A stretch of 64,000 nucleotides of DNA from Minisyncoccota bacterium (GTDB lineage Bacteria; Patescibacteriota; Minisyncoccia; Phycocordibacterales; Phycocordibacteraceae): contig JBAYHD010000002.1 of NCBI GenBank assembly GCA_041666305.1, positions 64,684-128,683 of the forward strand. The letters are read 5' to 3'. Both the position numbers and the translations under genes were made by a program. The notes below the pieces were generated by a model. That model saw only the letters and a program-made list of their open reading frames with translations, was not told where the DNA came from and made no database searches. Of this stretch, positions 5,921 through 52,766 are shown piece by piece; the first letter of the stretch is position 1, and each line of letters opens with the position of its first letter.

Positions 5921-6838
5921 ATGATATTCCGGTACGAGTATCCAGGCGGTGTGTGGGTCGACCTTGAACAACCGAGCGCCGACGAAATACGGCGCGTTGC
6001 GCGGGAATTTTCCATCAATGAGCGGCTTGAGGCTGAACTCTTGTCCCCCACCCCGTCGCCACTTGTCGCCGGCGACGAAACTGTCGCGCTTCTCGTCCTT
6101 CATTTCCCCGTGCAGGAAGACGGTGGCGGGACGCCGAAGAGCCAGGAGATAGATTTCATCGTTGGCAATCGATTCATCGTGACCGTGCGCTATGAGGTCA
6201 TCGTGCCACTCCATCACTTGAAGAAACTTCTCGAGACGGAAAAAATCGTTTCCAATCACGATGGCATTTCCACCGACGTCTTACTCGAGATACTGTTCGC
6301 ACATCTCTACACGTCCGTGCGCGACCATACCGATCACGTAGCAGCGAATCTCGAACGAGTGGAACGGCAGATGTTCGACGGGCGCGAGCGCAACACGGTG
6401 CGGCTTATTTCCAACATCAGCCGAGAATTTCTGCATTTAGAAGCGGCGCTTGCGAATCAAGAGGAGTCACTTGGGCGTTTCCTACACGTTCTCGCTGAGC
6501 GCAGTCTCTTCGGCGCATCTTTTGTCGAACGTTCTATTCGCATTGAGGCAGAACGCGCACAAGTCGCGCACTTTATCAAGACACACCGCGCGATAGCGAG
6601 TGAGATGCGTGAGACCAATATTGCCCTTCTTGAGGCGCGTCAGAATGAGATTATGAAAACACTGACACTTATAACGGTCATCATACTACCTCTTGAACTC
6701 ATTGCCGTCACGCTCGGTATACACGCTCAAGGAGCGCCACTTGAAGAAAACCCTGATGCATTTCTCATCATCATGACCATCATGTTCAGTCTCGTCGTTC
6801 TTATGGTGCTTTTCTTCGCTAAAAAACGCTGGCTCTAG
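5921..6838 (+). CDS. corA: CorA-family Mg2+/Co2+ transporter
   Basis: cytoplasmic alpha/beta domain plus two C-terminal TM helices; GMN-like loop degenerate. Confidence 0.65.
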   Translation: MIFRYEYPGGVWVDLEQPSADEIRRVAREFSINERLEAELLSPTPSPLVAGDETVALLVLHFPVQEDGGGTPKSQEIDFIVGNRFIVTVRYEVIVPLHHLKKLLETEKIVSNHDGISTDVLLEILFAHLYTSVRDHTDHVAANLERVERQMFDGRERNTVRLISNISREFLHLEAALANQEESLGRFLHVLAERSLFGASFVERSIRIEAERAQVAHFIKTHRAIASEMRETNIALLEARQNEIMKTLTLITVIILPLELIAVTLGIHAQGAPLEENPDAFLIIMTIMFSLVVLMVLFFAKKRWL

Positions 6839-6841
6839 TCT

Positions 6842-6982
6842 ATGCCCGGTAGGACAACATGGCATCGTGTCTTTTACTCCAACTGCGATTTGCATGATAT
6901 ACAATGACAATGCACTATGAATTCAATGACTCAATTTGAAAGGCGTGACACAGAGAGTAATGCCATGTTGTCCTAACCGGGT

Positions 6983-6984
<2 letters not shown>
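6842..6984. repeat. ERIC/MITE-like intergenic element copy 1 (21-bp terminal inverted repeats, ~95-bp variable core)
   Basis: left arm cccggtaggacaacatggcat, right arm atgccatgttgtcctaaccggg (reverse complement with 1-nt bulge); second copy near 50305. Confidence 0.8.
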
Positions 6985-8443
<1,459 letters not shown>

Positions 8444-11087: not shown

Positions 11088-11149
11088 GTCAATCCTCCTG
11101 GTGGGTTCAAGTCTGCCGCGACTATACCACGGGTGATTATTCACTCCCA

Positions 11150-11174
11150 ATGAAAGGTTTACGAAACCTTTCAT
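11150..11174. repeat. REP copy 1, 25-bp palindrome atgaaaggtttacgaaacctttcat (inverted orientation)
   Basis: near-perfect palindrome; the asymmetric centre (tacg vs cgta) defines orientation. Confidence 0.85.
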
Positions 11175-11183
11175 GTATACTGG

Positions 11184-11879
11184 TTGTTGATGGAACTCTG
11201 GCACGTTCTTAATCGGGGTGTTGAGGGACGCAATCTATTTCTCGATACGCAGGATTACGCTCGCTTTGTACACGATCTCTATGAATTCAACGACACCGCA
11301 TTGGCTACCAATCGCTGGCGTTCCTTTGACCTGTCAGGAATGAAAGGTTTCGTAAACCTTTCATTCCGAGAAACGCGGAACTTGCTGGTGGATGTTCATG
11401 GGTGGGTGTTGATGAAGAATCACTACCATTTGCTGTTATCAGAACGAGTCGAAGGTGGTATTAGTCTCTTTCTACGCAAGCTGAACGTAGGGTATGCCAA
11501 CTACTTCAATCAAAGATACGGACGGAAAGGAACCCTCTTCCAGGGCCGGACGAAGAAGATTTTGATTAATCGTCAGGCGCACTTTCTGTATATCCTTCAC
11601 TATATTCATCTCAACCCGCTTGATTATCTACCGGGTGCCGATGATTGGCGCATACGGAGTAAAAGCGTCATTAAGAATGCGGGTGAAGCATTCAATTTTC
11701 TTGACTCGTACCGCTGGAGCAGTTATTTAGACTATATCGGGCAAAAGAACTTCCCTTCTATTCTCAAAACTTCCCTCTTCAAAGGATCTCTCGGCGATTA
11801 TCGGGAATCGCTTCATGAGTATCTTAACGACGCCGAACAAGACAGCGATAGTAGTATGGAACAGTCGATTTTGGAATGA
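11184..11879 (+). CDS. REP-associated tyrosine transposase (RAYT, IS200/IS605 Y1 HUH family)
   Basis: 'HVLNRG..GRNLF' N-terminal strand, HUH motif 'NHYHLLL', 'GYANYFNQRYGRKGTLFQGR' catalytic-Tyr helix region, RAYT hallmark 'YRWSSY'. Confidence 0.8.
   Translation: MLMELWHVLNRGVEGRNLFLDTQDYARFVHDLYEFNDTALATNRWRSFDLSGMKGFVNLSFRETRNLLVDVHGWVLMKNHYHLLLSERVEGGISLFLRKLNVGYANYFNQRYGRKGTLFQGRTKKILINRQAHFLYILHYIHLNPLDYLPGADDWRIRSKSVIKNAGEAFNFLDSYRWSSYLDYIGQKNFPSILKTSLFKGSLGDYRESLHEYLNDAEQDSDSSMEQSILE
11340..11364. repeat. REP copy 2 (forward orientation), in-frame inside the RAYT ORF
   Basis: atgaaaggtttcgtaaacctttcat, extended to the 31-bp palindrome ggaatgaaagg...cctttcattcc. Confidence 0.85.
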
Positions 11880-11900
11880 AAGGTTTCGTAAACCTTTCAT
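11876..11900. repeat. REP copy 3 (forward orientation), overlapping the RAYT stop codon
   Basis: atgaaaggtttcgtaaacctttcat; the RAYT TGA stop is the tga of the repeat. Confidence 0.85.
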
Positions 11901-11918
11901 TTCTAGCGGTCTTGAAGG

Positions 11919-15074: not shown

Positions 15075-15323
15075 GTCTGTAGTATACCCTGTACTAGAGC
15101 AAAGCTTCAGTACGGGGATACCTCCTGCTTCTTTATCCACACATGACATTGCAGATGTGATGCTACAATTCATTCGAAGAGGTAGTCGAGTCCTGTTTTA
15201 AGGTTAACAACACTCCTCTCATCAGCGCCCGGGCACCCGTGTGTCCAGAATCCGATTCTGGACACATTTTCGTTTTTTCGACCCGGCATACATTACAATG
15301 TGCGCGTAACTAGAACGACTATG

Positions 15324-21093: not shown

Positions 21094-23388
21094 CTAGCCC
21101 TTAGCTTGCTTCCTGATCTTGGCCAATACGGCCTTTGATTTCTTGTTTTCAGCGTCTGTCGCTTTCCTCCTCGCCTGTTCCTTGGCCAGCTTTTCTTTCG
21201 CCGTCTTTCTTTGCTTTGCGAGCGCAATTTCTGCCCTGTGTTTTTCAGCGAAAACAGTGCGTTCGATCATCTTCCTTCTCGCGGAGAGCGCGGTCCGCGT
21301 CTGACTGTTCTTTTTTTGCACGGCGTGCTCTTTCGCCCGTTTCTTCCGTAGGGTCGACTGCAATTTTTTCTTTTCTGCTATGACGATTCTCATCCGCTCT
21401 TTTTCACGGCGTATCGTTTCCTCTTCTTTTTTCTTACGAGCTGCGAGAGCAGTCTCAACTTGTTTGGCTTTAGCCCGAATTGCTTTCTCTTTTTCTCGCT
21501 CCTTACGAAGAGCTGTTTGCACTCTCCTTTTCGCATCAGCAACCAGTTTCTTTGCGCGCGTCTTTTCCTTCAGGAGAGCTCTTGCCTTCTTTCGTTTTTC
21601 CGCAGCGAGTGCTTTTTCTGCTTTCTTTTTCTCATTCGCGACGACTTTATCGGCGGCTTTTTTGCTTATCAGTGATGCGCTTGGCGCAGAATGTGCTTCT
21701 TTTTTATTTTCAAAAAATTCCGTCAATCCGCGGATTGCGTCCGCGTGCTTTATGCGTTCAGTTGCCATTACCTCTTCCGCAAGTTTTCGTTCTTCAACAA
21801 CGACCTCTTCCCTTTTTTGTTTTTCTATCTGTAGGGCCTTCGCTTCTTTTCTTTTTTCTTTGGCGAGAGCTGCCTCAGCTTGTCTCTTCAAAAGCCTCAA
21901 TCCTTCTGACTGATCCTTCGCTGAAAGGACCGCGTCGGCAAGACGTTTCTTCTCGGCGATGACTGCCTCGAATTTATTTTTTTCTGCCATGAGCTTTGCT
22001 TGGAAACGCTGCTTCTCACGAGCCAGTGCTGTTTCCGCAGCTTTGGCGCGACGCAATTCATCTTTCAGAGCAGTTTCCGCTTGATCCTTCAAAAGAAAAG
22101 CCTCGTCCGCTTGTTTTTTCTCCGAGAAAGCTTGTTCAGCAAATTGTTCTTTCTTTACGACCGCGCTGGCTGTTTTCGATTTTTCCTCGACTATCTTTGC
22201 GTTAACGCGTTTCTTTTCCCTCACCAGCGCTGCTTCGGCAGTCTCGGCGCGCTTCTTTTCTTCTGCGAGCTCTGCTTCCTTTATTTTTTCTTCGGCGAGC
22301 ACGGCGTCTGTGCGTTTCTTTTCCTTCGCGAGCGCCGCCTCAACCTCGCTCTTTAGGCGAAGCGCTTCCTCGGTTTGTTTCTTTGCCACGAGCACCTCCT
22401 CCGTCGTTTGCTTTTGTGCCGCTGTGGCCACGTCCGCCTCAGCGTATTGCCTCTTGATATCGGAAATAGCAGCTTTGGCCTTACTCTTTTCTTCAGCCAG
22501 TGCGACTTCCGCGTCCTCTGCACGCTTTTTTGTGTCCACAAGCGCTGCTTCGGCCTCGCTTTTCATGCGAAGAGCTTCTTCCGCTTGCTTTTTTGCTGCA
22601 AGGAACTCTTCTTCTGCACTGATTTTTGATGCAACAGTCTCCTCTTGAGATGGCTTCTTTTTAAGGTCGGAAATTATGGATTCAGACCGGTTCTTCTCCT
22701 CGGCCAACGCCGCTTCCGCGGCTTCTACATGCTTTCGTTCTAGAGCGAGTTCGTCCTCCGCTTGCTGTTTTTCCTTTTGGAGCTCGGCTTCCTTCTTTTC
22801 TTCTTCAGCAAGAGCATTTTCCGCTCGTTTCTTTTCCTCTTCAAGCGCCGCTTCTGCTTCGCTTTTCAGACGAAGAACTTCTTCCGCTTGCTTCGCCGCC
22901 GCGGAAACCTCTTCCGTTTGCTGTTTTTCTGTTGTCGCAGCCTCAGTTCCGACGGTTTCTTCCAACGGAACGGGAGTCGGCTCTTCTTTCGTTTCTGCGA
23001 CGGTAGTCGATATATCGATGCCTTTTTCCTCAAAATACGATTTAATCTTTGCGATCACTTCCTCGAACGGATGATCTGCTTTTACAAAATAATCCTTGGC
23101 ACCAAGCGACAACGCTGTCTTAATATCCTCGTCGCCTTGAAGATTCGACGTCACAAAAACGGGTATGTCCTGCAATGTCGGGCTTTCCTTCATTGCCTTC
23201 AACACGCCGAAGCCGTCCAGACGGGGCATCACGAGGTCCAATATCACCAGATCGATCTCGTGTTGCCGCAGTATGTTCAGCGCCTCCTCGCCGTCACCTG
23301 CCGTGAGAACATCCCACATTTGCGCCTCCAGCTTGCCCTGTTCTATGTGACGCAGGCTTTCATCATCTTCGGCGACGAGTATTCTCAT
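21094..23388 (-). CDS. response-regulator receiver domain fused to a ~640-aa K/E/A-rich repetitive coiled-coil tail (FrzS-like architecture)
   Basis: N-terminal REC ('ILVAEDDESL', 'LVILDLVMP'); remainder is a low-complexity Ala/Glu/Lys heptad-like repeat ('AKKQAEEALRMKSEAEAAL..KKRAEDAE.ALAEEK'). Confidence 0.75.
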   Translation of the reverse strand: MRILVAEDDESLRHIEQGKLEAQMWDVLTAGDGEEALNILRQHEIDLVILDLVMPRLDGFGVLKAMKESPTLQDIPVFVTSNLQGDEDIKTALSLGAKDYFVKADHPFEEVIAKIKSYFEEKGIDISTTVAETKEEPTPVPLEETVGTEAATTEKQQTEEVSAAAKQAEEVLRLKSEAEAALEEEKKRAENALAEEEKKEAELQKEKQQAEDELALERKHVEAAEAALAEEKNRSESIISDLKKKPSQEETVASKISAEEEFLAAKKQAEEALRMKSEAEAALVDTKKRAEDAEVALAEEKSKAKAAISDIKRQYAEADVATAAQKQTTEEVLVAKKQTEEALRLKSEVEAALAKEKKRTDAVLAEEKIKEAELAEEKKRAETAEAALVREKKRVNAKIVEEKSKTASAVVKKEQFAEQAFSEKKQADEAFLLKDQAETALKDELRRAKAAETALAREKQRFQAKLMAEKNKFEAVIAEKKRLADAVLSAKDQSEGLRLLKRQAEAALAKEKRKEAKALQIEKQKREEVVVEERKLAEEVMATERIKHADAIRGLTEFFENKKEAHSAPSASLISKKAADKVVANEKKKAEKALAAEKRKKARALLKEKTRAKKLVADAKRRVQTALRKEREKEKAIRAKAKQVETALAARKKKEEETIRREKERMRIVIAEKKKLQSTLRKKRAKEHAVQKKNSQTRTALSARRKMIERTVFAEKHRAEIALAKQRKTAKEKLAKEQARRKATDAENKKSKAVLAKIRKQAKG

Positions 23389-24878: not shown

Positions 24879-27800
24879 TTATTGTTTGAGAGTGCGGACA
24901 AAGATGCTCAAGTCGGTGACATCAACTTTTCCGTCGCCGTTGAGGTCGTCAAGTATGCGAACGGCCGTATCGGACGAAGAGAAACGCGAGAGGAAAATAC
25001 TCCAGTCCTGCACATTGATCACGCCGTCCTGATTGAAGTCGGTTTGCGGGGTGAGCAGTGTCGTCACATTGAACACCTTTTGGGGAGTATAATCGCTCTT
25101 CGCTCCAATGGGAGAAATTTGGCGTACACGGACGGTATGACTGCCGAGCGCGAGCGTACCGGTCGGGAGGAGCATTTTGTACGAACCGTCAGATTCGACG
25201 GGCGTTTCTGTAGGAATGGAAGTGCCATCAATTTCAGCTTCGACAGAATACCCGGGAATCGCCATTCCTACGAAACCAACCACATCATTTTGGCGGACGG
25301 TCGGATGCACGAGGCCCAAGGTCGGCGAAAGGAGACCGGCATCGAGATGGATGACCGGATTATTGCCTGAGTAACCCGCGTTGAACACTACGGTCTGGGT
25401 CGTGCGGCCGAGCGAGTCAATTCCAACAACGCCGTACGAACCGAGTCCGACCTGAATGTTTTTCAGCAACATCGAGAAGGCGCCGTTCGCTGCAGCGGTC
25501 GTCTGCGCCTGCAGTATCGACCCTTTCGGCGATACAGAGAGAACTTGTATTTTCGCGCCCGGAAATGCCAATCCCGAAAGTTGCTCGCCAATAACAATCG
25601 TTATTCCGGGAGCAACGGCGGTGGCGCTTACGCCCGACGACGGTGCGACAGGAGTTGCCGAGAATGTGATCTCCTGCGTCGAAGACACGTCGAGGTTCGT
25701 CCCTTCACTGTCAGACAGCGAGAGAGTCACTGTTTCGGGAGAAGTGTCCTGTAAGGACGCCGTTCCAACGCCGTTAACCATGGTCACGAGTCCGGCGCCG
25801 GTCGCCGAGCCAGTCACCAGGAGCGTCACGCCGGATTGGATCGTGGTGTCCACATTGCCGGAATTATCTTGCGCTTCGATGGTCACTGTTGCCGGCGTTC
25901 CGACCTGAACGGTCGAAGGTGGCAGAATGACGAAACGAGTGGCGACGATTGGTATCGTGCTCACCGTCACTGAATCAACAGCATCGAGGATGCCGGTGGA
26001 ACCATTCGGCGCGCCCGAACTGTCAGAAGCAGTGACCAGCCAGGTGCCGGGCTCTGCGTCGTAATACCAGAAATCGCCTGACGAATTGCCGTCATTGATA
26101 GTAGCGAAGGCTGTCGGTGCTCCGCCGACTGCCGCTGAATAAAATGCGGTTGTCGTCCCCGTCGAAGATGAACACAGGTACGCGAGCGTCACGCCCGCGG
26201 TAGTGGGATTATTGAACTGATCTTCGCGGGTCACGGTGTATCCGAGGCGCGTGCTGACTGTCATATTGCCGGGATCATTCAAGAGGAATTTCGCGACAGC
26301 GGCCGGCTGAATAGTAATCGCATCACTCGCATCGGCTACGCCCGCGCTATCCGGCGCGCTCGAGCTATCAGACACCGTTATGTACCAGTCGCCCGCTTTC
26401 TCATCGTATGCCCAGAAGCTGATTGCTGAAACGCCATCCGGAATGACAATGGATGTAATTGCGCTGCCACCGCTCGCGGCGTCATAGAATTTTTTGTTGA
26501 CGCCATCGGAGGTGCTATAGAGATACGCCGTTGTTGCGCCGGCCGTGACCAAATTTCCGTACTGATCTTTACGACTGACGGTGTATCCGATCCTCGCTCC
26601 CGCCGCCACGTCTCCGGGATTATTAAGCGCGAATTGCGCGACCGCTCCGGCAGCGAAGGTCACTCCTTGAGTCGAAGACACGTTAAGATTTGTCGTTTGA
26701 CTGTCAACAAGTGACAGCGTGACGACTTCAGGAACCGTATCGGATATCGGGATCGTTCCGACACCGCTTGCAATGGTCACGAGCCCTCCGCCAGTCGCCG
26801 TGCCGCTTGTGTTGAGCGTCACTCCGATATTTTGAGTGGTGTCCACATTGCCGGAATTATCTTGTGCCTGCACCGTAACGGTAATCGGCGCGTCAACGGT
26901 ACCACTCGTCGGAGGAAGTATCACAATGCGTGTCGCGACAATAGGAGCCGCGGTAACCCCCACCGAGTCGGTAGCGTCAGCGACGCCGCTCAATCCATCT
27001 GGGACGGATGGATTATCAGAAGCGGTCACGGTCCATGTCCCGAGATTTGAATCGGCATACCACACTTGGGCAGATGACTGGCCGTCCGGAATGGTGATTG
27101 AAGTGATCACCGTGCCGTTCGTATCAGCGTCATAGAACGCAGGAGTATCGACTCCGGTCGAATTGCTATACATATATACCGTTGTAGCGCCGTCAGTAAC
27201 TAGGTTATTGAATTGGTCCTTTCGAGTCACGGTGTAGCCAAGGCGCGTATCGGCAGTCATGTCGCCCGGATTATTGAGCGAGAAAGAGGCAACCGAACCT
27301 GCAGTCACCACAAGAGAGTCGGTGGCATCGTTGATGCCGGTGTTGCCGTCCGGTGCAGATATATTATCGGAAGCGGTCACAGTCCATGTTCCCGGCAACT
27401 CGTCGTAATACCAGACATCCGCCGTTGATTGACCGTCACTTATGGTGATTGAAGTTATTTCAGTGCCGTTTATCGCGGCATTATAAAATTTCTTATTCAC
27501 ACCGGTCGATGAACTGTAGAGATACACGACATTTGAACCGAGAGAACTCACATTGCCGTATTGGTCTTTGCGCGTAATCGTGTATGCCGCACGCTCGCCC
27601 GCAGCCAATGTTGCTGGGTGATTGAGCGTGAACTGTGAGACCGTTCCGCCGGCAAACACAACTGACTGCGTCGACGAAACATCCAAGCCGGTACTCTGTG
27701 AGTCAGTCAAAGAGAGATCCACGGTCTCGGCAACCGTATCTGAAATGGATAGTGTTCCAACACCGTTGATGATATCTACCAATCCTCCGCCGGTAGCGGA

Positions 27801-30326
27801 ACCGGTCGTGTCCAAGGTCACGTCATTTTGATAATTCGTGTCCACACTGTTGTCGGGCTTTTGTGCCTGCACAGTGACCGTGATAGAAGCATCCACCGTG
27901 CCATTCGTCGGCGGTAGTATGACGAATTTCGTAGCGACCGGGTTTACGACCACAGAATCGGTCGCGTCAGCAATGCCGGTATTACCGTCAGCATTCGGAG
28001 TGGCATCAGACGCCGTAATGGTGTAGGTCCCCGGCGTCTCATCGTAGTACCAGAAGTTGGCTGTCGAGTAGCCGGGAGCAATATCGATGTAGGTAATCTC
28101 CGAGCCGGCGAGAGAATCATCGTAGAATTTTTTCGTACCGCTTGAGGAGTTGGAATAGAGATAGACTCTGTTTGTTCCCGTACCAACCGCGTTCCCTGAA
28201 AAATCGTTTCTACTCACGGTATACCCGAGCCGGGTTCGGGCGTACATATCTCCCGGATTATTGAGCGAAAAGGACGTAACGACTCCACCGGTCACGGTAA
28301 AGGCGGCAGAGGTACCGGTCTTCGTCCCTCCGTTGTCGGTTGCGGTGATGGTCTTGCCGGAACCAGCTGTTGTCACCGTCACACTTTCCGTGCGTTCACC
28401 TGATACGAAGGCGCCGGACTCCGTGGGCGCGATGGTGCCTGCGGTTGTAGAAAGATCAACAGTGCCTGAATATCCGGTCACGGTGTTGTTGTTCACGTCC
28501 TGCGCCATAATCGTTATGTTGAACGGGGTACCGGCTGCTTGGGTGGTGATTGCCGCGAAAGAGAAATGATCAAGAGCACCGGGATTCACGGTGAACGTCG
28601 AGGAGGTGCCGGTCTTCGTTCCTCCATTATCGGTAGCGGTGATGGTTTGAAGAGTGCCGGCCTGCGTAACGGTCACGCTTTCGGTACGCACACCGGAGCT
28701 GAAGGCACTCGATTGCGTCGGCGCGATGGTGCCTGCAGTCGTCGAGAGATCAACGGTGCCCGAATAGCTGGCCAGTGTGTTGTTATTCACATCCTGCGCT
28801 GTGATGGTGATGTTGAAAGCGGTACCGGCGGTCTGTGTTCCGATAGCGGCGATGGCAAAGTGATCAAGGGTGCCGGCAGTAACGGTGAATGACTGATCCA
28901 CATCTGCAGCGGCGTTGTAGTTGCTGTTGCCGGATTGCGAGGCGCGAATGGTGCAAGTGCCCGTAGAGACAAGGTGGACGGTTGCGGTACTCACAGTACA
29001 GACGCCGGTCGTTTGCGACGAGAAGGTGACCGTGAGGCCGGATGAGGCTGTTGCGCTGACCGCGAAGTCGGGATCACTGAGCGTCTTGTCCGAAAGTGCA
29101 CCAAACGTGATGGTCTGATTCGCCGTATTGATGACGAAGTTCCCTGCCGAGGCGCCCGTCAAACTTTTATAACTCGTGGTGTCGGTCGGCGTGAAGTTGG
29201 CGGTGACGGCATAGGTGCCGACGTTGGTCTGCGTTGCAACGCCACCCGTAAGGATATTGCTTGCCGTACCCGGTACAGAACCCGAGACTGTGGCAGCTTG
29301 TCCGGAGCCATTGTAGGTGACAGGAGAATTCGTCACCGAAAGAGTCGGTGTCGCGCGAGTATCGTTCGTAACACTCAACATGCCAGTCGTTGCTGCGAAA
29401 TAGGTGTTGTTTTGATGAGTTGCCGTGGAGCTTGTTGAACCCCATGTGCCATTGATGCGGCCGAGACCGCCGAGCGTCAGATTTGCTACCGTCAGTGTAA
29501 GCCCGGCCCCGACACTTGCAGTCACCGAGCCCGTCGGTGCAATGCTCATCGTGCCGCTAACCGAAGTTCCAGTTACCATCGTCGCCGCACCGCTTCCAGA
29601 GAGCGTGAGATTCACATAACTGGCGGGCTCGATCGCTTGCGCTGAACCGTTATAATTAATTGTGTTTCCGGCTCCGGTTGCGGTGAGCGTGACATTAGCA
29701 GATGGCGTAAATGCCCCATTGATATTGAGCACAGAACTCGCACCTTGCACCCATATGGCAGTGCCGCTCGTTCGTGCGTAATTGCCATTCAGAGTAACGG
29801 TCCCATTGTTTGTAACTGTTTTCCCCGGAGAATTAATATTGTTGTTGATCGTTATATTTGCGGTGGAAGAAAAGGAGAAATTTTGGGTTACCAATATACT
29901 CGTATCTATCACTCCACTCCCATCGATAGTTTTTCCAGCGGAGTTCGATTTAAGAATCCCCGATGTCCCAGTAATTGATCCGTTGACCACAACGTTTCCG
30001 TTTTCCGTAAGCGTAAACGCACCGGCAAAGTTCAAAATAGCGCCAGAGTTTACGGTAAGACCGGCATTTGTTTTATTCGCACTGATAGTCACATTATTTC
30101 CGCCGGTCGTCGCAATAATGACACTGTCGGCATTTGCGGGAACCACGCCACCAATCCATGTTGACGCCGTAGCCCAATTGCCTCCGGTCGCAGTACTTGT
30201 CCTTACTGCAGCAAATGCGGTGCTTGCACCACCGAGCGTCATCAGCATCGTTAATGCGAATACAAAACTATACCTGCCGACTCTTGCGAACAAGGAGAAG
30301 AATGCGAGGCGGTGGTTGGTAGTCAT
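24879..30326 (-). CDS. giant surface adhesin-like protein with beta-helix N-terminus, ~6 tandem ~100-aa Ig-like modules and C-terminal dockerin
   Basis: signal peptide; Thr/Gly/Asn-rich beta-helix repeats; repeated module '...VYLYS.S.G..K.FYD....G..ITSI.I.DG.S.A..WYYD..PGTW.VTASD'; C-terminal 'DFNQDGVINVQD...DLNGDGKVDVTD' duplicated Ca-binding dockerin segments. Confidence 0.8.
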   Translation of the reverse strand: MTTNHRLAFFSLFARVGRYSFVFALTMLMTLGGASTAFAAVRTSTATGGNWATASTWIGGVVPANADSVIIATTGGNNVTISANKTNAGLTVNSGAILNFAGAFTLTENGNVVVNGSITGTSGILKSNSAGKTIDGSGVIDTSILVTQNFSFSSTANITINNNINSPGKTVTNNGTVTLNGNYARTSGTAIWVQGASSVLNINGAFTPSANVTLTATGAGNTINYNGSAQAIEPASYVNLTLSGSGAATMVTGTSVSGTMSIAPTGSVTASVGAGLTLTVANLTLGGLGRINGTWGSTSSTATHQNNTYFAATTGMLSVTNDTRATPTLSVTNSPVTYNGSGQAATVSGSVPGTASNILTGGVATQTNVGTYAVTANFTPTDTTSYKSLTGASAGNFVINTANQTITFGALSDKTLSDPDFAVSATASSGLTVTFSSQTTGVCTVSTATVHLVSTGTCTIRASQSGNSNYNAAADVDQSFTVTAGTLDHFAIAAIGTQTAGTAFNITITAQDVNNNTLASYSGTVDLSTTAGTIAPTQSSAFSSGVRTESVTVTQAGTLQTITATDNGGTKTGTSSTFTVNPGALDHFSFAAITTQAAGTPFNITIMAQDVNNNTVTGYSGTVDLSTTAGTIAPTESGAFVSGERTESVTVTTAGSGKTITATDNGGTKTGTSAAFTVTGGVVTSFSLNNPGDMYARTRLGYTVSRNDFSGNAVGTGTNRVYLYSNSSSGTKKFYDDSLAGSEITYIDIAPGYSTANFWYYDETPGTYTITASDATPNADGNTGIADATDSVVVNPVATKFVILPPTNGTVDASITVTVQAQKPDNSVDTNYQNDVTLDTTGSATGGGLVDIINGVGTLSISDTVAETVDLSLTDSQSTGLDVSSTQSVVFAGGTVSQFTLNHPATLAAGERAAYTITRKDQYGNVSSLGSNVVYLYSSSTGVNKKFYNAAINGTEITSITISDGQSTADVWYYDELPGTWTVTASDNISAPDGNTGINDATDSLVVTAGSVASFSLNNPGDMTADTRLGYTVTRKDQFNNLVTDGATTVYMYSNSTGVDTPAFYDADTNGTVITSITIPDGQSSAQVWYADSNLGTWTVTASDNPSVPDGLSGVADATDSVGVTAAPIVATRIVILPPTSGTVDAPITVTVQAQDNSGNVDTTQNIGVTLNTSGTATGGGLVTIASGVGTIPISDTVPEVVTLSLVDSQTTNLNVSSTQGVTFAAGAVAQFALNNPGDVAAGARIGYTVSRKDQYGNLVTAGATTAYLYSTSDGVNKKFYDAASGGSAITSIVIPDGVSAISFWAYDEKAGDWYITVSDSSSAPDSAGVADASDAITIQPAAVAKFLLNDPGNMTVSTRLGYTVTREDQFNNPTTAGVTLAYLCSSSTGTTTAFYSAAVGGAPTAFATINDGNSSGDFWYYDAEPGTWLVTASDSSGAPNGSTGILDAVDSVTVSTIPIVATRFVILPPSTVQVGTPATVTIEAQDNSGNVDTTIQSGVTLLVTGSATGAGLVTMVNGVGTASLQDTSPETVTLSLSDSEGTNLDVSSTQEITFSATPVAPSSGVSATAVAPGITIVIGEQLSGLAFPGAKIQVLSVSPKGSILQAQTTAAANGAFSMLLKNIQVGLGSYGVVGIDSLGRTTQTVVFNAGYSGNNPVIHLDAGLLSPTLGLVHPTVRQNDVVGFVGMAIPGYSVEAEIDGTSIPTETPVESDGSYKMLLPTGTLALGSHTVRVRQISPIGAKSDYTPQKVFNVTTLLTPQTDFNQDGVINVQDWSIFLSRFSSSDTAVRILDDLNGDGKVDVTDLSIFVRTLKQ

Positions 30327-30476
30327 GAGGGTGTAAAAATAATGGTATCTGCATATAATATAGAGCAATTCAGCCATTGTTTTTGCCATTTCGTAAAATA
30401 TGTGTGGATAGTAAGGATGGAATGCGCATGCTCATGTATGGCATGACGGGCGAAAGTCTGGTATAAAAATAGGTAC

Positions 30477-34005: not shown

Positions 34006-34959
34006 TTACGCGGCATATGAAAGTACGGTTTCCGCCGGTTTTGCGGTTTCTGCATGCGACAAAACGGCCGCACGTTCGAAAATGCGCAATTTCGCGCTTC
34101 GGGCGCGGCGATTACGGAGGACTTCCGCTCGCGATGGTACGATGGGCTTTTTTGTCACCGTTCCGAACCCCTCCTGCGCCGCATCACGCAGCATATTTTT
34201 TACGACGCGATCTTCAATGCTGTGGAATGAAATGATCGCGAGGCGGCCGCCTGCAGAAAGAGCGCCGAGCGCCGCCGTGAGCCCTTCGCGCAGTGCGCCA
34301 AGCTCGTCATTGACCGCGATGCGAAGCGCTTGGAACGTTTTCGTCGCCGGATTAATCTTGCGCGCACGGTACCACGCTGGCACGCCGGCTTCGACCGCGC
34401 GAACCAGTTGCCCGGTCGTCAGTATCCGCTCCTTTGCACGCGCAGTAACTATTGCCCGGGCGATGCCACGCGAGAAATGCTCCTCGCCGTACGTGAAGAT
34501 GAGGTCGGCGAGTGCCTCTTCGGAAAAACCGTTGACAATGTCAGCAGCCGTTTCGCCTCCTTCGCCATAGGTCATGAGAAGCGGTTCATCCTGCTGAAAA
34601 GAAAAGCCGCGCGGCGCCGCGATTTGATACCCGCTCCACCCGAGATCAAAGAGGATCTTGCCGACGGGAGCGATATTGAGACGCTCTAAAATGCGCGCGA
34701 GATTGCGGAAGTTATCATTCACCAAATGCGCGACCGGCCGTCCGGGCCGACGATCAAGCGCATAGGCTTCGCGTCCGCGCTCCACCGCCGCGGGATCCGC
34801 GTCGATACCCACGATGACACCGCCTTCTCCGAGCTGTAGAAGTAAAGCGGCGAAGTGCCCTCCGCCGCCGATGGTCGCATCAACGACCGTGTCGCTTGAT
34901 TGCACATCGAGCGCTTCAAGCACTTCTTTCATCAACACGCTTTCATGCAGTGTTTCCAT
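34006..34959 (-). CDS. rsmH: 16S rRNA (cytosine1402-N4)-methyltransferase
   Basis: 'HESVLMKEVLEAL....VVDATIGGGGH' MraW/RsmH N-terminus; SAM-binding fold. Confidence 0.85.
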   Translation of the reverse strand: METLHESVLMKEVLEALDVQSSDTVVDATIGGGGHFAALLLQLGEGGVIVGIDADPAAVERGREAYALDRRPGRPVAHLVNDNFRNLARILERLNIAPVGKILFDLGWSGYQIAAPRGFSFQQDEPLLMTYGEGGETAADIVNGFSEEALADLIFTYGEEHFSRGIARAIVTARAKERILTTGQLVRAVEAGVPAWYRARKINPATKTFQALRIAVNDELGALREGLTAALGALSAGGRLAIISFHSIEDRVVKNMLRDAAQEGFGTVTKKPIVPSRAEVLRNRRARSAKLRIFERAAVLSHAETAKPAETVLSYAA

Positions 34960-34960
34960 A

Positions 34961-35386
34961 TCAGTTTTTATTGCCGACTTTTTCGGCAAAAGCATCGGCA
35001 TCGCGCTCGATCGCCTTCGTGTATTTCTTCCACGAATCTTCTTGCCAAATTTCGACTCGGTCGGCGACGCCTGCAATAACCGCTTTCTCTTTGATCGAGG
35101 CAAAAGACTTCAAGTGTTCGGGAATGAGTACGCGACCGGAACGATCGACCTCAGCTTCGGATGAGCCCGCAAGGAAAAGACGTGCGAGACCGCGGCGCGC
35201 GGCATTTCCGCTTGCTTCAGCCGCATAGGCGCGCGCCTCTTTCTCCCACGCTTTGCGCGAATACACATACAGACAATGATCAAGGCCGCGCGTCACCACG
35301 ACGACACGGCCCAAATCCTTCCGGAATTTCGACGGAATCGAAATCCGATTTTTAGAATCGAATATGTGTAGGTATTCTCCGAGGAA
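34961..35386 (-). CDS. mraZ: transcriptional regulator MraZ
   Basis: 'MFLGEY...DSKNRISIP..FR' duplicated MraZ/SpoVT-AbrB domain. Confidence 0.85.
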   Translation of the reverse strand, partial: FLGEYLHIFDSKNRISIPSKFRKDLGRVVVVTRGLDHCLYVYSRKAWEKEARAYAAEASGNAARRGLARLFLAGSSEAEVDRSGRVLIPEHLKSFASIKEKAVIAGVADRVEIWQEDSWKKYTKAIERDADAFAEKVGNKN

Positions 35387-40599: not shown

Positions 40600-41623
40600 C
40601 AACAAAGAAATCCGAGAAGGGTTCCGGGTCCTCGGTGACGATGCCTGCACCGCGCACCACTGCGGTGAGCGGGTCCGGTGCGACTCTCACCGGTACGCCA
40701 AGCATCTTTGCAAGTATTTGCGGCAGACCGCGCAGCAGGGCTCCGCCGCCAAAAACGGTGACTCCCTGCTGAAGCACGTCCGAGAGAAGTTCCGGCGGCG
40801 TCGCTTCAATGACTTCTTTCATGGAGTCCATAAGTGCGTCCAAGGACGGCGCGATGGCTTCGCGAATGTGAGAATCGGTGAGTGTTATTTCTCGCGGGAG
40901 TCCGGTCGCAAAATCGCGGCCGCGTACGGTCCGCGACAAGGTCTCATGAAGCGGTATCACGGCGCCTATCGCTATCTTCACGTCTTCTGCGGTACGCTCG
41001 CCGATACCGAGCTTGAACTCGCTCCGCACATATTCAATGATGTTGTCATTAAAGCGATCCCCGGCAACATGCGAGCTCTTTGACGCAACGACACCCTTGA
41101 GCGCGATGACCGCGATATCGGTGGTGCCACCGCCGATATCGAGCACCATCGTGCCGACCGCCTCATGCACCGGCAGTTTTGCACCAATGGCGCCTGCGAC
41201 TGGCTCTTCCAGGATGATGGCCTCGCGTGCACCGGCATTCTTCGCGGCATCGCGTACGGCGCGGCTCTGCACGTTGGTAACGCCGGTCGGCACGCCGATG
41301 ACGACGCGCGGACCGAAAAGCCGCACGCGTCCGTTCTGCGCTTTGTTGATGAGATAGGTCAGTAATTCCTCGGTCACTTCGAAATCCGAAATGACGCCGT
41401 GGCTCAAGGGGCGCACCACGCGGATGTGCGCGGGAGTCTTGCCGAGCATCGTCTTCGCTTCCTTCCCCACCGCCACGACCTGATGCGTCTTATCGTTCAC
41501 GGCGACCGCCGAGGGTTCGTTGATGACGACACCCTTCCCGCGCACGTATACGAGCGTGTTAGTCGTCCCGAGGTCTATTGCGATGTCGTTACTGAAGAGC
41601 AGATTTTTTGAAAACCGGGCCAT
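40571..41623 (-). CDS. mreB: rod shape-determining actin homologue MreB
   Basis: 'IAIDLGTTNTLVYV', 'DIGGGTTDIA' actin-fold phosphate motifs. Confidence 0.9.
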   Translation of the reverse strand: MARFSKNLLFSNDIAIDLGTTNTLVYVRGKGVVINEPSAVAVNDKTHQVVAVGKEAKTMLGKTPAHIRVVRPLSHGVISDFEVTEELLTYLINKAQNGRVRLFGPRVVIGVPTGVTNVQSRAVRDAAKNAGAREAIILEEPVAGAIGAKLPVHEAVGTMVLDIGGGTTDIAVIALKGVVASKSSHVAGDRFNDNIIEYVRSEFKLGIGERTAEDVKIAIGAVIPLHETLSRTVRGRDFATGLPREITLTDSHIREAIAPSLDALMDSMKEVIEATPPELLSDVLQQGVTVFGGGALLRGLPQILAKMLGVPVRVAPDPLTAVVRGAGIVTEDPEPFSDFFVDEEDILSEA

Positions 41624-41634
41624 GGGGATAGGCG

Positions 41635-42885
41635 CTAGGCGCTAGGCGCTAGGCGGGACAAGAGTTCGGAACGTGGTTTTTTCTGCACCGTGCCGGTCGC
41701 GCGATTCACCACCTCGAACTCGCCAGTGGCGACGGCGTCCTTCCCCACCACGATGCGCTTCGGAACGCCGAGTAGGTCGCTATCCGCGAATTTCTCGCCG
41801 GCACGAGCATCGCGATCGTCATACAAAACTTCCACGCCGGTTTTTATCAAATCATCGTAAAGAACATCCGCTGTTTTAGAAATTTCGTCGCCGTCTTTCC
41901 CAAGCGACACGAGGTGCACCGAAAATGGCGCGACGCTCTCGGGCCACACCAGCCCTTTTGCATCGGAGAGCACCTCCACAATAGCGCCGACGAGGCGCGA
42001 GGGGCCGATGCCGTAGCAGCCCATCACGACCGGATGTTTCTTCCCCTCCTTGTCCAGATATGAGAGACCGAGCGGTTCAGAAAAACGCGTTCCGAGCTTG
42101 AAAATATTTCCGACTTCCACGGCCGTTTCCTCTTTGAGTTCGCCGCGGTCTATCTCAAGGTCCGCAAGGACCTCATCGGTTAGCACTTCTTTATTGATAG
42201 CAACACCCTTTGCGCGGGAGACATAAATCGTATCCTCGCCACTCTCGCAGAGTGTCTGAAATTCGTGGCTGTATTTGGAAAAAGCGCCACCTGAAGCGAA
42301 TGTCATGAAGGTGCGGTCACCGAGTCCGACGCGCGCGAAGACATTCTTATATGCCTGTGCCGCCTGTTCATAAAAGGTATCCAGATCGGCCTGGTCAGCG
42401 TGGAACGAATACATGTCCTTCATCAAGAATTCCCGTCCGCGCATCACGCCGGACTTCGCGCGTTCTTCGTTCCTGAATTTCGTTTGTATCTGATACGTGG
42501 AGAACGGAAGGTCGCGGTATGAACTCACATTCTGAGAAGCAAGGTTTGTGATGGGCTCTTCGTGCGTCCACCCGAGACCCGTCTCGCCCGCCGTCTTGAG
42601 CATCGTCTTGAACCAAACATCCTGCTCCCAACGATTTGTCTTTTTCCAGAGTTCGGCATTCTGGAGCGCCGACATGAGAAGTTCCTGTCCGCCGATTGCG
42701 TTCATCTCTTCTCGAATGACGCGAACGACATTGTTCAGTACGCGGAGCCCGAGCGGGAGAAATGAATACACGCCGGCCGCTTCTTTATGCACGAAGCCGG
42801 CACGAATCAGGAGCTGGGCGTTCTTCGCGACCTCGTCGGCCGGCGCCTCGCGGCGAGTTTTGGTGAAGAGCTGGGACTGTCTCAT
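41635..42885 (-). CDS. proS: prolyl-tRNA synthetase (short form without editing insertion)
   Basis: N-terminus aligns with ProRS 'M..SQL...T.RE.PADAE..S..L..RAG...K...G.Y..LP.G.RV'; class II core and anticodon-binding domain; 416 aa. Confidence 0.8.
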   Translation of the reverse strand: MRQSQLFTKTRREAPADEVAKNAQLLIRAGFVHKEAAGVYSFLPLGLRVLNNVVRVIREEMNAIGGQELLMSALQNAELWKKTNRWEQDVWFKTMLKTAGETGLGWTHEEPITNLASQNVSSYRDLPFSTYQIQTKFRNEERAKSGVMRGREFLMKDMYSFHADQADLDTFYEQAAQAYKNVFARVGLGDRTFMTFASGGAFSKYSHEFQTLCESGEDTIYVSRAKGVAINKEVLTDEVLADLEIDRGELKEETAVEVGNIFKLGTRFSEPLGLSYLDKEGKKHPVVMGCYGIGPSRLVGAIVEVLSDAKGLVWPESVAPFSVHLVSLGKDGDEISKTADVLYDDLIKTGVEVLYDDRDARAGEKFADSDLLGVPKRIVVGKDAVATGEFEVVNRATGTVQKKPRSELLSRLAPSA

Positions 42886-42964
42886 AGGCGACAGTATACC
42901 CTGTACTGAAGCAGAGCTCTAGTACGGGGTATATGCCCACCCCACCCACTCGGCAAAAGGGCGC

Positions 42965-45253: not shown

Positions 45254-45416
45254 CAGTAATGCGATGTGAGGATTTTGGAGACTCTCGGAGGCGGAGCAGC
45301 ATGGCGAATTGCGGCGCCGGAGGGCAGCTGCGCCGCAATTTGCGACGCCGAGAGTGAGCGCGTCCCGCGGCAGGGCGGGACGACGCGTGCTCCAAAATTC
45401 TTACATCGCATTACTG
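45254..45416. repeat. ~160-bp multi-hairpin palindromic intergenic element between frr and rseP
   Basis: outer arms cagtaatgcgatgtgaggattttggag / ctccaaaattcttacatcgcattactg enclosing two perfect hairpins (attgcggcgc..gcgccgcaat; cgtcccgc..gcgggacg). Confidence 0.6.
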
Positions 45417-49781: not shown

Positions 49782-50315
49782 ATGAAAGAAATCGTGCAAG
49801 ACGGCGCGAAGGTGCTCCGCGATATCGCTAAGCCGGTGCCGAAGGAACTGTTCGGCTCAGTGAAGCTCGCACGCATAATTGTCGACATGACCGAGGCGCT
49901 CGACCAAGAACTCGAGGGCGTCGCGCTCGCTGCGCCACAGATCGATGTTCCCCTTCGGATTTTCATCGTGCGCAAAGATCGTACTCTGCCTCCTCCGGCA
50001 CAGGTTCCGGAAGGGGCGCCGCTTCCTCCTCCCCTGCCGGCGGAAGTGGAGGTATATATCAATCCGGAGATTGTTAAGACGTCTCGCCGACGCGCACGCG
50101 CGGACGAGGGCTGCCTTTCGGTTCGCGGTGTCTATGGCACCACGAAACGGCATGAGCGCGTTACCGTTCGCGCGCAACACCCGGACGGTAAATCATTTCA
50201 GCGCGGCGGCGGCGGCATCATGGCGCAAATCTTTGAGCATGAAATTGACCACTTGAATGGCATTCTTTTCATAGACCACGCCGAGCACCTCATCGAGATA
50301 CATCATGCCCAGTAG
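49782..50315 (+). CDS. def: peptide deformylase (with ~30-aa Pro-rich insertion)
   Basis: motifs 'GVALAAPQI', 'EGCLSV', 'HEIDHLNG'. Confidence 0.9.
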   Translation: MKEIVQDGAKVLRDIAKPVPKELFGSVKLARIIVDMTEALDQELEGVALAAPQIDVPLRIFIVRKDRTLPPPAQVPEGAPLPPPLPAEVEVYINPEIVKTSRRRARADEGCLSVRGVYGTTKRHERVTVRAQHPDGKSFQRGGGGIMAQIFEHEIDHLNGILFIDHAEHLIEIHHAQ

Positions 50316-50445
50316 GACAACATGGCATCATGTCTTTGCCGCTTATAAACGGACGCGGTACAACTAGAATTATGAACACAACGAGGCAACCGCAGGCAAC
50401 TACCTCGGACACGCAGGGCAATGCCATGTTGTCCTCACTGGGCAT
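50305..50445. repeat. ERIC/MITE-like intergenic element copy 2
   Basis: arms gcccagtaggacaacatggcat / atgccatgttgtcctcactgggc; the def stop TAG lies in the left arm and the candidate fmt ATG abuts the right arm. Confidence 0.8.
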
Positions 50446-51307
50446 GCCCCAACCGCATAACCCAGAACATTCGCAGACGAATGAACGGGCGCAGAGCCGT
50501 TTCGCATACTTCGGCACGCCGAACGTTGCAAGCGAAACGCTTGCAAGGCTCATTGAGCATGGTTTCATTCCCGAACTCGTCGTGACGTCACCGGACGCGC
50601 CGAGGGACCGCGGCCACGTGCTCACGCCATCGCCCACGAAAACGCTTGCGCTCTCGCGCGGCATCAAGGTGCTCACGCCGGCGCGTCTCGACACAGAGAC
50701 GATAGCAGAGATACGCGCGTGCAAATGCGATTACGCGGTCGTCGTTGCGTACGGCAAAATATTTCCTGAAGAATTGATCCAATCATTTCCGCTCGGCGTG
50801 CTGAATGTGCATTACTCGCTCTTGCCAAAATATCGCGGCGCAACGCCGCTTGAAGCCGCACTCCTCGCAGGAGAAAAAGAGACCGGCGTGACCATACAAA
50901 AGATGGTGAAAGAATTGGACGCTGGCGACATCATTGAGCAGAAAGCGACCGAAATAGAATCCGACGAAACCGCGCGCGAACTGAGGCCTCGACTTATCAT
51001 CATAGGCGCTGAACTATTGGCTGAGGCACTTCCTCGTTTCGCGGGCGGTTTTATAACACCGGTCCCGCAAGATGATTCAAAAGCGACGCGCGCGGGAAAA
51101 TTAAAAAAGGAAGACGGTCTCCTCTCATTCGACGCACCGGCCGAAGAGAATTGGAACAAATATCGCGCCTATGCCGACAGTATCGGTACGTATTTTTTTG
51201 AGAATGGAAAACGAAAGAAAATAACAAAAGCGTCGTTTACGAACGGAAAGTTCGTCGTTGAACGCGTCATTCCCGAGGGAAGAAACGAAACGGATTATCG
51301 CGGCTAG
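50443..51307 (+). CDS. fmt: methionyl-tRNA formyltransferase
   Basis: 'RFAYFGTPNVA' N-terminus, 'HYSLLPKYRGA' formyltransferase motif, C-terminal domain; the ORF-track start at 50330 lies inside the repeat and is probably too long. Confidence 0.85.
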
Positions 51308-52169: not shown

Positions 52170-52199
52170 GCTTTTAGGATAGCATTCTTTGCTCCGCGG

Positions 52200-52373
52200 G
52201 TAAGCGTTTCTTGCACGCTTTCCCGCGTTCGCCTCGCTCGAAAACAGAAGCCGTGGGTGCCCCGCTTGTAAGCGTTGCTTGCACGCTTTCCCGCGTTCGC
52301 CTCGCTCGAAAACAGAAGCCGTGGGTGCCCCGCTTGTAAGCGTTGCTTGCACGCTTTCCCGCGTTCGCCTCGG
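52200..52373. repeat. 68-bp tandem direct repeat, 2.6 copies (1 mismatch)
   Basis: unit gtaagcgttgcttgcacgctttcccgcgttcgcctcgctcgaaaacagaagccgtgggtgccccgctt. Confidence 0.9.
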
Positions 52374-52380
52374 ATAAAAA

Positions 52381-52714: not shown

Positions 52715-52766
52715 AGGTAAACACCGATTAATGTAACCGGCTTATGATCAGTATACACAGACATAT

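Follow-up and report, generated by a model that had tools for sequence, protein, structure and literature searches.

The closest analogues of the element described here are two families of small bacterial repeats. Mycobacterial interspersed repetitive units (MIRUs; Supply et al. 1997) are, according to PMC3184786, small intercistronic repeats of operons, which are oriented with respect to the genes, are known from filled and empty sites and carry tetranucleotide direct repeats. The Rickettsia palindromic elements (RPEs; Ogata et al. 2000) are mobile palindromic sequences of ~100-150 bp with an open frame, which, according to PMC10969869, are tolerated by being translated. The element in question occurs twice in a stretch of 64,000 nucleotides from a Minisyncoccota bacterium (contig JBAYHD010000002.1; the whole stretch is hereafter called the window), once between corA and cysS and once between def and fmt. 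Judged by its sequence, it is probably a non-autonomous element of the MITE type (miniature inverted-repeat transposable element) of tiny-genome groundwater Patescibacteria, which is tolerated, and possibly exploited, as a translational relay.

Small open reading frames (ORFs) that overlap adjacent stop and start codons are found in both MIRUs (PMC3184786) and the element, and the resemblance is here a functional one only. MIRUs are 40-100-bp units, which are often arranged in tandem (variable number tandem repeats, VNTR) and have imperfect terminal repeats, whereas the element is a single ~135-bp unit with near-perfect terminal inverted repeats (TIRs) of ~21-22 nt, a codon built around a bulged base and a target duplication that is itself a start codon; none of its 24 sense copies is in tandem. 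It also resides in another phylum and belongs, by architecture and host, to neither MIRUs nor RPEs. Mycobacteria rely heavily on leaderless and coupled translation, as the host of the element appears to do. The likeness to RPEs lies in those copies whose bulged base is C, which form in-frame N-terminal fusions of the RPE kind. RPEs, however, insert at many positions inside coding sequences and encode a peptide that is conserved, whereas the element is found only at start codons, mostly has its own stop just before the AUG of the gene and, apart from its arms, shows no peptide conservation. In the literature, the coverage of which was incomplete, neither MITEs on start codons nor such elements in Patescibacteria were found to be described, and prior work is possible.

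Copies of the element and their start-codon target

The initial annotation had reported an inverted repeat between corA and cysS. The repeat lies where it was placed, bulged A included, and consists of two 21-nt arms (6845-6865 and 6960-6980), which are 90% complementary and 94 nt apart. The distances to the neighbouring genes needed correction: the corA stop codon is 6836-6838, the element proper starts at 6845, as the preceding TATG (6841-6844) belongs to the target duplication, and the cysS ATG follows the arm after 1 nt and not after 2. A second copy with near-identical arms and a different core had been placed between def and fmt, and is indeed present there (50308-50442); the cores of the two copies are poorly conserved, and the core type of copy 1 was found again at another site in other genomes. 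The flanking genes are identified as CorA, CysS, Def and Fmt by Pfam, and with their flanks the copies span 6841-6985 (corA/cysS) and 50304-50446 (def/fmt). The ends of the element read CCCRGTAGGACAACATGGCAT, and the 16-mer core of the arm occurs four times in the window compared to 0.27 expected occurrences, a count that was reached in none of 100 shuffles. In the following list, frame R denotes the frame of the codon containing the bulged base (U-N-A), which is always the frame of the downstream gene, and S1 to S4 denote RNA helices.

6841..6844, plus strand: left duplicated target TATG of copy 1; its ATG (6842-6844) is the original cysS start position, 3 nt past the corA stop (6836-6838)
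6845..6865, plus strand: left TIR of copy 1, CCCGGTAGGACAACATGGCAT; 5' strand of helices S1 and S2, holding a TAG (6850-6852) and a second ATG (6859-6861)
6842..6907, plus strand: short ORF 1 of copy 1 from the left ATG, MPGRTTWHRVFYSNCDLHDIQ, then a stop
6867..6880, plus strand: 5' strands of the inner helices of copy 1, S3 GTGTC (6867-6871) and S4 TACTCC (6875-6880), from alignment and pair counts
6917..6976, plus strand: short ORF 2 of copy 1 in frame R, MNSMTQFERRDTESNAMLS, then a stop, which is the bulge codon TAA (6974-6976); 6 nt (CCGGGT) separate it from the cysS ATG
6947..6959, plus strand: 3' strands of the inner helices of copy 1, S3 GACAC (6947-6951) and the purine-rich S4 AGAGTA (6954-6959)
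6960..6981, plus strand: right TIR of copy 1, ATGCCATGTTGTCCT-A-ACCGGG, with the bulged A at 6975
6982..6985, plus strand: right TATG duplicate of copy 1; its ATG (6983-6985) is the cysS start, and the N-terminus MxWLARIFGKR is kept in the L020 orthologue
50304..50307, plus strand: left CATG duplicate of copy 2
50308..50328, plus strand: left arm of copy 2, CCCAGTAGGACAACATGGCAT; its TAG (50313-50315) is the def stop codon
50330..50443, plus strand: frame R of copy 2, open from the ATG at 50330 across the element into the fmt frame; the bulged C gives TCA and not TAA
50421..50442, plus strand: right arm of copy 2, ATGCCATGTTGTCCT-C-ACTGGG, with the bulged C at 50436
50443..50446, plus strand: right CATG duplicate of copy 2; its ATG (50444-50446) is the fmt start, and M[PQ]QPH is kept in L019

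All scans for further copies used one arm pattern, which allowed for the bulge and the covarying position; the compared public loci are labelled L001-L024. Among species-representative genomes, three genuine copies were found, all in metagenome-assembled genomes (MAGs) of Patescibacteria (a Candidatus Kaiserbacteria bacterium, a Paceibacterota bacterium and a 'Patescibacteria group' bacterium). The pattern was present in 17 metagenome loci and had no matches in viral contigs. A match in Caulobacter (L001) is a lone arm within coding sequence and was discarded as a chance match. Copies identical to the window element are also present in two other metagenome samples, and the near-identical strains L022-L024 contain an identical element, which adds nothing to the set. 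Once oriented and deduplicated, the set comprises 24 sense copies, 20 of them unique, at about 14 sites. The 20 unique copies in relatives and the 97% identity of the arms between orthologous copies refute the possibility, raised in the initial annotation, that they might occur in only two places and lack conservation in relatives.

The element is ~133-137 bp long (83-137 bp including a deletion derivative) and contains only short ORFs. Using a covariance model built from the copies, two further members were recovered. The first one (L007 2337-2427, plus strand) is a 91-nt match, which corresponds to the derivative of ~83 bp plus its YATG flanks; it is flanked by TATG, retains an intact ORF of 26 codons, which stops at the bulge TAA, and occupies the start of an ftsI-like gene, with a full-length copy one gene upstream. 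The second one (L012 925-1074, minus strand) is a weak match (16 bits) with divergent arms (CCCGACACACTAAAAAGACAT / ATGCCTTTTAGTGTGACGGG), which shares the layout, namely TATG, a 47-codon ORF from the left ATG, TGA, 5 nt and the ATG of the next gene, and possibly represents a second subfamily. Both members have the design ATG-ORF-stop-N5-7-ATG. A scan of the compared DNA for YATG-flanked inverted repeats by design returned the known family alone and no further families.

Mobility can be deduced from orthologous junctions, which were compared by tblastn of the flanking proteins against all compared loci. The mraZ-rsmH junction is filled in L005, L006, L008, L014 and L015 and empty in the window and L007. 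The rsmH-ftsL junction is filled in L007 and empty in the window, L006, L008 and L015, and the mreB start (x-mreB junction) is filled in L003 and empty in the window. Two empty targets of the window were located by this comparison:

34955..34966, minus strand: empty mraZ-rsmH target, mraZ stop TGA-T-ATG rsmH start
41620..41627, minus strand: empty target at the mreB start (CCCCATGG)

At the base level, the mraZ-rsmH junction reads AAC TGA TATG GAA when empty and AAC TGA TATG[CCCGG...CCGGG TATG]GAA when filled, and the rsmH-ftsL junction reads CC TATG CATAA and CC TATG[CCCAGT...ACTGGG TATG]CATAA, respectively. As the ends of filled and empty sites are clean, the insertion consists of the element and a second YATG. 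The duplicated 4 bp include the downstream gene's start codon, and empty sites carry a single YATG. Flank pairs of the unique copies are T/T in 16 cases, C/C in two (the def-fmt orthologues) and C/T in one; a non-duplicative insertion 3' of YATG may be an alternative to a duplication. Core types are shared between unrelated sites, type A between corA-cysS and a 3'-5' exonuclease-like gene and type D between L013 and L016, and a near-identical pair of copies (L017 144-285 and 929-1070, minus strand) lies 785 bp apart on a 1.1-kb contig, bracketing a single gene of 214 aa. The filled and empty sites and the 4-bp duplication agree with the earlier proposal of a small, non-autonomous, MITE-like mobile element for tight gene junctions.

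At 14 of 14 sites, a real gene lies downstream and has the right-hand ATG as its start codon. The downstream genes include cysS, fmt, rsmH, an ftsL-like gene, mreB, ftsX and an exonuclease-like gene, and their N-termini are conserved among orthologues and empty-site orthologues. Of the YATG tetranucleotides located outside coding sequence in the window, 39 of 147 (27%) are start codons, which gives P ~9e-9 for 14 of 14 if all non-coding YATG are equally acceptable. Mobility and start-codon specificity are regarded as very likely. The mreB start that is filled in L003 has a further peculiarity in the window: directly upstream of it, the heptamer GCGCCTA is repeated four times in tandem (41624-41660, minus strand).

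The orientation of all copies is uniform, with the unbulged arm upstream and the bulged arm beside the gene. The asymmetric bulge places frame R in the frame of the gene and creates the stop codon, and a single orientation would therefore be seen as the result of either selection or the insertion mechanism. An orientation that is fixed relative to an asymmetric tetranucleotide on the left would be the natural product of single-strand transposition, in which insertion takes place 3' of the tetranucleotide, as in the IS200/IS605 (HUH), PATE and REP/RAYT families. These families, however, lack TIRs spanning both ends and a target duplication; the TIRs, which extend from end to end, and the CATG/CATG pair that flanks the element at def-fmt are a better fit to a true duplication of the DDE type. 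TIRs at both ends, the YATG duplication, the small size without a transposase gene, dispersed copies and insertion polymorphism make the element a MITE by structure, apart from an identified parent insertion sequence (IS). When species-representative genomes, metagenomes and viral contigs were scanned with the arm pattern, no long element or IS with matching ends was found, only paired arms ~100 nt apart.

Probable translation across the element

Among crude gene calls in the window, 49 of 53 have no upstream Shine-Dalgarno site of the GGAG/GAGG type. Many first genes are preceded by an extended -10 box of the TGGTATAnT type, which ends 6-8 nt before the ATG, and this promoter geometry implies that leaderless mRNAs are probably widespread in the host genome. 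Internal genes are joined by stop/start junctions that overlap or are very short. Where the element has inserted, the stop of the upstream gene lies at -12 to +8 nt relative to the left arm, and at three sites a -10 box is located directly upstream of the left ATG in a leaderless-promoter context (L016/L018 ggTATGATagagaTATG; L013 TGcTAGCCTttgaaTATG; L012 cTATACTttacccaTATG). As the initiation context of the host is upstream of the left ATG, this ATG keeps its native context after insertion, and the ATG of the gene at the right end is left without one; the displaced ATG has neither a Shine-Dalgarno site nor a 5' end of its own. Two signals that the element might have supplied were considered and rejected: an outward promoter in the right arm, which has no TAnnnT box at the spacing of this genome, and, as the main signal, an element-borne Shine-Dalgarno site (GGAG 7 nt before the AUG-UUG of the right arm), which is unlikely as the box varies and the genome scarcely uses such sites.

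Frame R is open far more often than the other frames. The bulged base is A in 12 unique copies and G in one, resulting in UAA or UGA 7 nt before the AUG of the gene, and C in seven copies, in which UCA allows the frame to continue into the gene; such in-frame fusions are present at def-fmt, mraZ-rsmH and rsmH-ftsL. Over the whole element, frame R is open in 16 of 20 unique copies, compared to 3 of 40 for the remaining sense frames and 14 of 60 on the antisense strand, and this is the case although cores of different types cannot be aligned. Across the core, it is open at 12 of 14 sites versus 3.9 expected from shuffled cores (Poisson-binomial P = 2.9e-6). The initial annotation had dismissed the ORFs of the element as spurious. 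This is correct for the MPCCP frame, which is irrelevant, but not for frame R, which ends at the bulge codon or is fused to the downstream gene.

The left arm offers one start codon for each frame, AUG at +1 (the duplicated start), AUG at +18 and GUG at +26 (ATG in copy 2). The start of frame R is always located in the left arm and tracks the length class: the 142-nt class uses AUG +1, resulting in a 43-codon ORF (MPGRTTWHRVF...DTxSNAMLS, then a stop), the 141- and 144-nt classes use AUG +18, and the 143-nt class uses GUG/AUG +26. In copies whose left AUG lies outside frame R, the short ORF that starts there typically ends at a UGA that overlaps the frame-R AUG, as in the AUGA junctions CUAUGAAC (type A) and CCAUGACA/UCAUGAUG (type C). 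In L007, the ORF of the left AUG crosses the element and ends at the UAA that closed rsmH at the empty site (UAUGCAUAA). The frame and peptide pattern of ORF 2 of copy 1 are repeated in L020, L004, L009, L010 and L011. Outside the translated arms, there is no conservation of the peptide, and none of 5.8 billion proteins was matched in a profile search with the 43-aa ORFs; selection therefore appears to target translatability and not a product. That the element encodes a functional small protein of ~43 aa is accordingly most improbable: the intact 43-codon ORF spans the element in eight unique copies at seven sites, but its conserved N- and C-termini are merely the translated arms, its middle part shows no relationship from one core type to another, and the frame in use depends on the length class, leading to three different N-termini.

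These statistics point, on the whole, to a relay mechanism, for which the following scheme is proposed. Ribosomes would reach the left ATG either by termination-reinitiation or by leaderless initiation, would initiate in the left arm at whichever start matches the open frame and would then translate the element in frame R, thereby melting the long stem. In copies with a bulged A or G, they would terminate at the UAA or UGA 7 nt before the AUG of the gene and reinitiate there, whereas in copies with a bulged C they would read through into the gene, which would acquire a short N-terminal extension. In some copies, two short ORFs, the stop and start of which overlap in AUGA, might serve the same end. 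The element would thus form a translated bridge, which keeps translational coupling intact in a genome nearly devoid of Shine-Dalgarno sites, and copies unable to serve as a bridge would not be among those seen. As the arms and an inner covarying helix are kept by selection, the stem probably has a further role; that it hides the downstream AUG as long as the bridge is not translated is speculative, as is the role of S3 and S4. It has been reported that reinitiation falls by 40-80% when the distance is 13-14 nt and that virtually none is left at about 20-38 nt (PMC10666635; review PMC12548453). Since reinitiation falls with distance, an untranslated insert of 135 nt should uncouple the genes, and a gap of 7 nt should not. 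The link to translational coupling drawn in the initial annotation is therefore probably right in spirit; the simple sequestration of the start codon by the stem, or attenuation, which it had suggested as well, is not favoured, as the open frame argues for translation through the element.

Several observations weigh against this reading. The sample was gathered by the arm pattern and only copies flanked by ATG on both sides were kept, though all copies that were found qualified, and the 14 sites were drawn from related genomes, perhaps 8-10 in number, so that their independence is incomplete. Mobility is deduced from comparative data, and no transposase or full-length parent was found. The evidence for translation of the element consists of codon geometry and the absence of stops. 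In copy 1, ORF 1 stops 9 nt before ORF 2, and there is no single through-ORF; its orthologue in L020 likewise lacks one, and a relay of two ORFs would be needed at this junction. Frame R is closed in L018_700. Moreover, a stem of 26 bp would be expected to impede initiation at the left AUG, and a bridging ORF alone leaves the near-invariance of both arm sequences, beyond their pairing, unexplained.

If the relay exists, it would show a way for transposable elements to spread in an extremely compact genome, in which intergenic DNA is nearly absent and initiation is not based on Shine-Dalgarno sites, namely by landing on a start codon, duplicating it and being translatable, so that the flow of ribosomes is unbroken. 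It would also provide independent evidence, from sequence alone, that termination-reinitiation and leaderless initiation are what the operon-internal genes of these bacteria depend on, which are uncultivated and as yet out of reach of tests in culture. On the practical side, gene callers misplace starts at element junctions, and Def gains an element-encoded C-terminus. Owing to the open frame through the element, fmt was called on identical DNA with 325 residues in one case and 311 in another (L022 10549-11526 and L023 685-1620). The insertions can be used as polymorphism markers for populations of Kaiserbacteria and Paceibacteria, and the design of the bulge codon, in which one base decides between stop-and-reinitiate and in-frame fusion, could serve synthetic coupling elements.

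The RNA stem and alternative explanations

With its flanks, the stem comprises ~26 bp and is composed of YAUG, CCCRGU, a single bulged base on the 3' side and 15 invariant pairs (AGGACAACAUGGCAU/AUGCCAUGUUGUCCU). The minimum free energies of the window copies are -58.6 and -63.1 kcal/mol, and the folding check that had been recommended gave z = -6.9 for both. Compared to copy 1, a G-to-A change in the left arm of copy 2 is offset by a C-to-T change in the right arm (ACTGGG). In all 20 unique copies, the arms are 21-22 nt long and 90-100% complementary. Pairing and covariation were counted on a 20-sequence alignment (A2), in which pairing of the arms amounts to 98%; of their 25 pairs, 14 are invariant and two have compensatory changes. 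Two inner helices accompany the arms: S3 (GUGUC/GACAC) is 94% paired with one compensatory pair, and S4 (UGCUCC/GGAGCA) shows changes on both sides at five of six pairs, its variants being ACUCC/GGAGU, AUUCC/GGAAU, GCUUC/GAAGC and AGCUC/GAGCU. None of 500 shuffles reached the observed covariation, and slid controls were all far lower. The arms and S3 were found independently by RNAalifold.

S3 and S4 occur in crossed order. A pseudoknot containing both at the same time was rejected on geometric grounds, as linkers of 1-3 nt would be too short for stacked helices. The 5' strand of S3 is 1 nt away from S2, and the 3' strand of S4 is contiguous with S2, a geometry which suggests that S3 and S4 might be alternative continuations of the stem. 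Between orthologous copies, identity amounts to 97% in the arms, 88% in the S3/S4 zones and 75% in the core, compared to 63-71% in the flanking coding DNA, and the S4 variants differ among orthologous copies at one site (L004, L009, L010, L011). It follows from the conservation of the arms and the S4 variants in orthologous copies that resident copies are under selection in place.

Two alternatives with a wider scope than a passive bridge can be envisaged, both with a low probability. The uniform orientation and the start-codon target could be the work of a dedicated, strand-specific transposition system that targets start codons, and resident copies could, in addition or instead, have been domesticated as translational gates. 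In such a gate, the 26-bp stem and the mutually exclusive S3 and S4 would make translation of the downstream gene strictly dependent on, and tunable by, the ribosome traffic on the bridge ORF. If this were true, the element would be a portable device that sets operon expression ratios in Patescibacteria that lack Shine-Dalgarno sites and use leaderless mRNAs.

A purely selfish MITE has also been considered, and is unlikely: it would have no role at the RNA level, its open frame and location would reflect survivorship, all other insertions having been lethal, and its arms would be kept by transposase activity, re-insertion or gene conversion. TIRs, the 4-bp duplication, filled and empty sites and cores common to different sites are classic MITE features, and the invariance of the arm sequence (the 14 of 25 pairs) is as expected for a protein recognition site. 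In addition, most arm mismatches are A.C on the sense strand (i.e., G.U on the antisense strand), albeit in a small sample, and not G.U as predicted for a selected sense RNA stem. The arms, however, remained 97% identical in orthologous copies whose cores drifted like the flanking genes, and S4 acquired compensatory changes inside a single orthologous group (L004, L009, L010 and L011), i.e., under selection on resident copies. Furthermore, survivorship still needs translation through the element, and its mechanism thereby overlaps with that of the translational relay.

The very stable fold (z of -6.9) could also be read as that of a cis-regulatory RNA switch, in which the stem masks the AUG and S3 and S4 toggle, S4 hiding a purine-rich GGAG box, or as that of an RNase III processing site. 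Duplexes of at least 20 bp are typical substrates of RNase III; cleavage of the ~26-bp duplex would uncouple the cistrons and leave a near-leaderless downstream mRNA. Such a function would account for the conservation of both S3 and S4, which stand in crossed order, are not compatible with each other on S2 and, in the case of S4, covary strongly, and a third GGAG copy present in some core types can pair locally with the CUCC strand. It would, however, leave the open frame R, the in-frame starts of the left arm and the stop 7 nt before the AUG unexplained. There is no Rfam match and no known ligand- or protein-binding motif, and the GGAG box is variable (GAAG, GGAA, GAG, GGG) in a genome that hardly uses Shine-Dalgarno sites, which makes this explanation improbable.

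Other repeat families and further features of the window

The initial annotation had likened the element to ERIC sequences, an assignment that does not hold. No match was obtained by blastn (word size 11) against 5,426 complete E. coli genomes or against plasmid and phage collections, and an ERIC or enterobacterial intergenic repeat unit (IRU; ~127-bp consensus) was rejected on the basis of the lacking similarity to E. coli and of the host, which is a MAG lineage of Patescibacteria. The Rfam comparison proposed at the same time gave no family for either copy: at the gathering threshold, the scan of the window returned a group I intron and tRNA only, both elsewhere, and a permissive scan returned Guanidine-III with 18 bits compared to a cut-off of 36 and on the opposite strand, and nothing for copy 2. 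An Rfam family, riboswitch or ribozyme was thus rejected, as there was no covariance-model match. The same applies to an integron attC site, as no RYYYAAC/GTTRRRY pair is present at the arm ends and the neighbours are housekeeping genes and not cassettes, and to a retron msr/msd, as there is no reverse transcriptase or integrase context.

With Correia, ERIC, RUP and Nezha elements, the element shares TIRs, a short core, target duplication, RNA stem-loops, transcribed intergenic sites and filled/empty polymorphism (PMC3184786). It is told apart from Correia elements by the duplication, which is TA in the latter and YATG here, and from ERIC, which occurs in either orientation, by its single orientation. 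Among classical MITEs, none has been reported to be exclusive to start codons or to contain a through-ORF. Neisseria REP2 repeats also abut genes and supply initiation signals including the ATG (PMC3184786). REP2, however, has no TIRs and brings along a promoter and a ribosome-binding site, whereas the element has neither a promoter nor a usable Shine-Dalgarno site and relies on the initiation context upstream.

The window also encodes a putative transposase of the RAYT/IS200 type:

11190-11879: RAYT/IS200-like HUH transposase ORF with the motifs NHYHLL and YIHLNP; Pfam Y1_Tnp with E = 3e-4, below the cut-off

A perfect REP-like palindrome, (GGA)ATGAAAGGTTTCGTAAACCTTTCAT(TCC), is present in three copies next to this ORF (window 11147-11904). 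The first copy (11150-11174) covers the ATG of a divergent NT5C-like gene, the second one (11340-11364) lies in frame inside the transposase ORF, and the third one (11876-11900) includes the transposase stop, so that this palindromic repeat, too, is found on gene boundaries. As a mobiliser of the element, the RAYT-like transposase is improbable, since its hairpins are unrelated to the arms and neither a homologue nor the REP palindrome was found at other element loci.

A second, unrelated MITE-like inverted repeat is located at 45254-45416, where the genes lie on the minus strand; its 27-nt arms (CAGTAATGCGATGT...) are 109 nt apart. It lies between a TTGACA box and a -10 box (TGATATACT), the latter of which is situated 7 nt before the GTG of an M50 peptidase gene, and it may split or rebuild the promoter. 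A 37-nt cassette is found at 15081-15117 and 42893-42929 (86% identical) and lies immediately upstream of a start of the leaderless type; it begins with a hairpin (CCCCGTACTGAAGC...), continues with GGGTATACT and resembles a portable module of terminator plus promoter. The group I intron mentioned above (52465-52732, minus strand; RF00028, 78.5 bits) is adjoined by a tandem repeat at 52190-52393 with three copies of a 68-nt unit. Two large ORFs on the minus strand, 21094-23388 (764 aa) and 24879-30389 (1836 aa), contain internal direct repeats (families D1-D3, D5 and D8), and the 764-aa ORF is strongly skewed in its A/T composition, with an AT skew of about -0.28.

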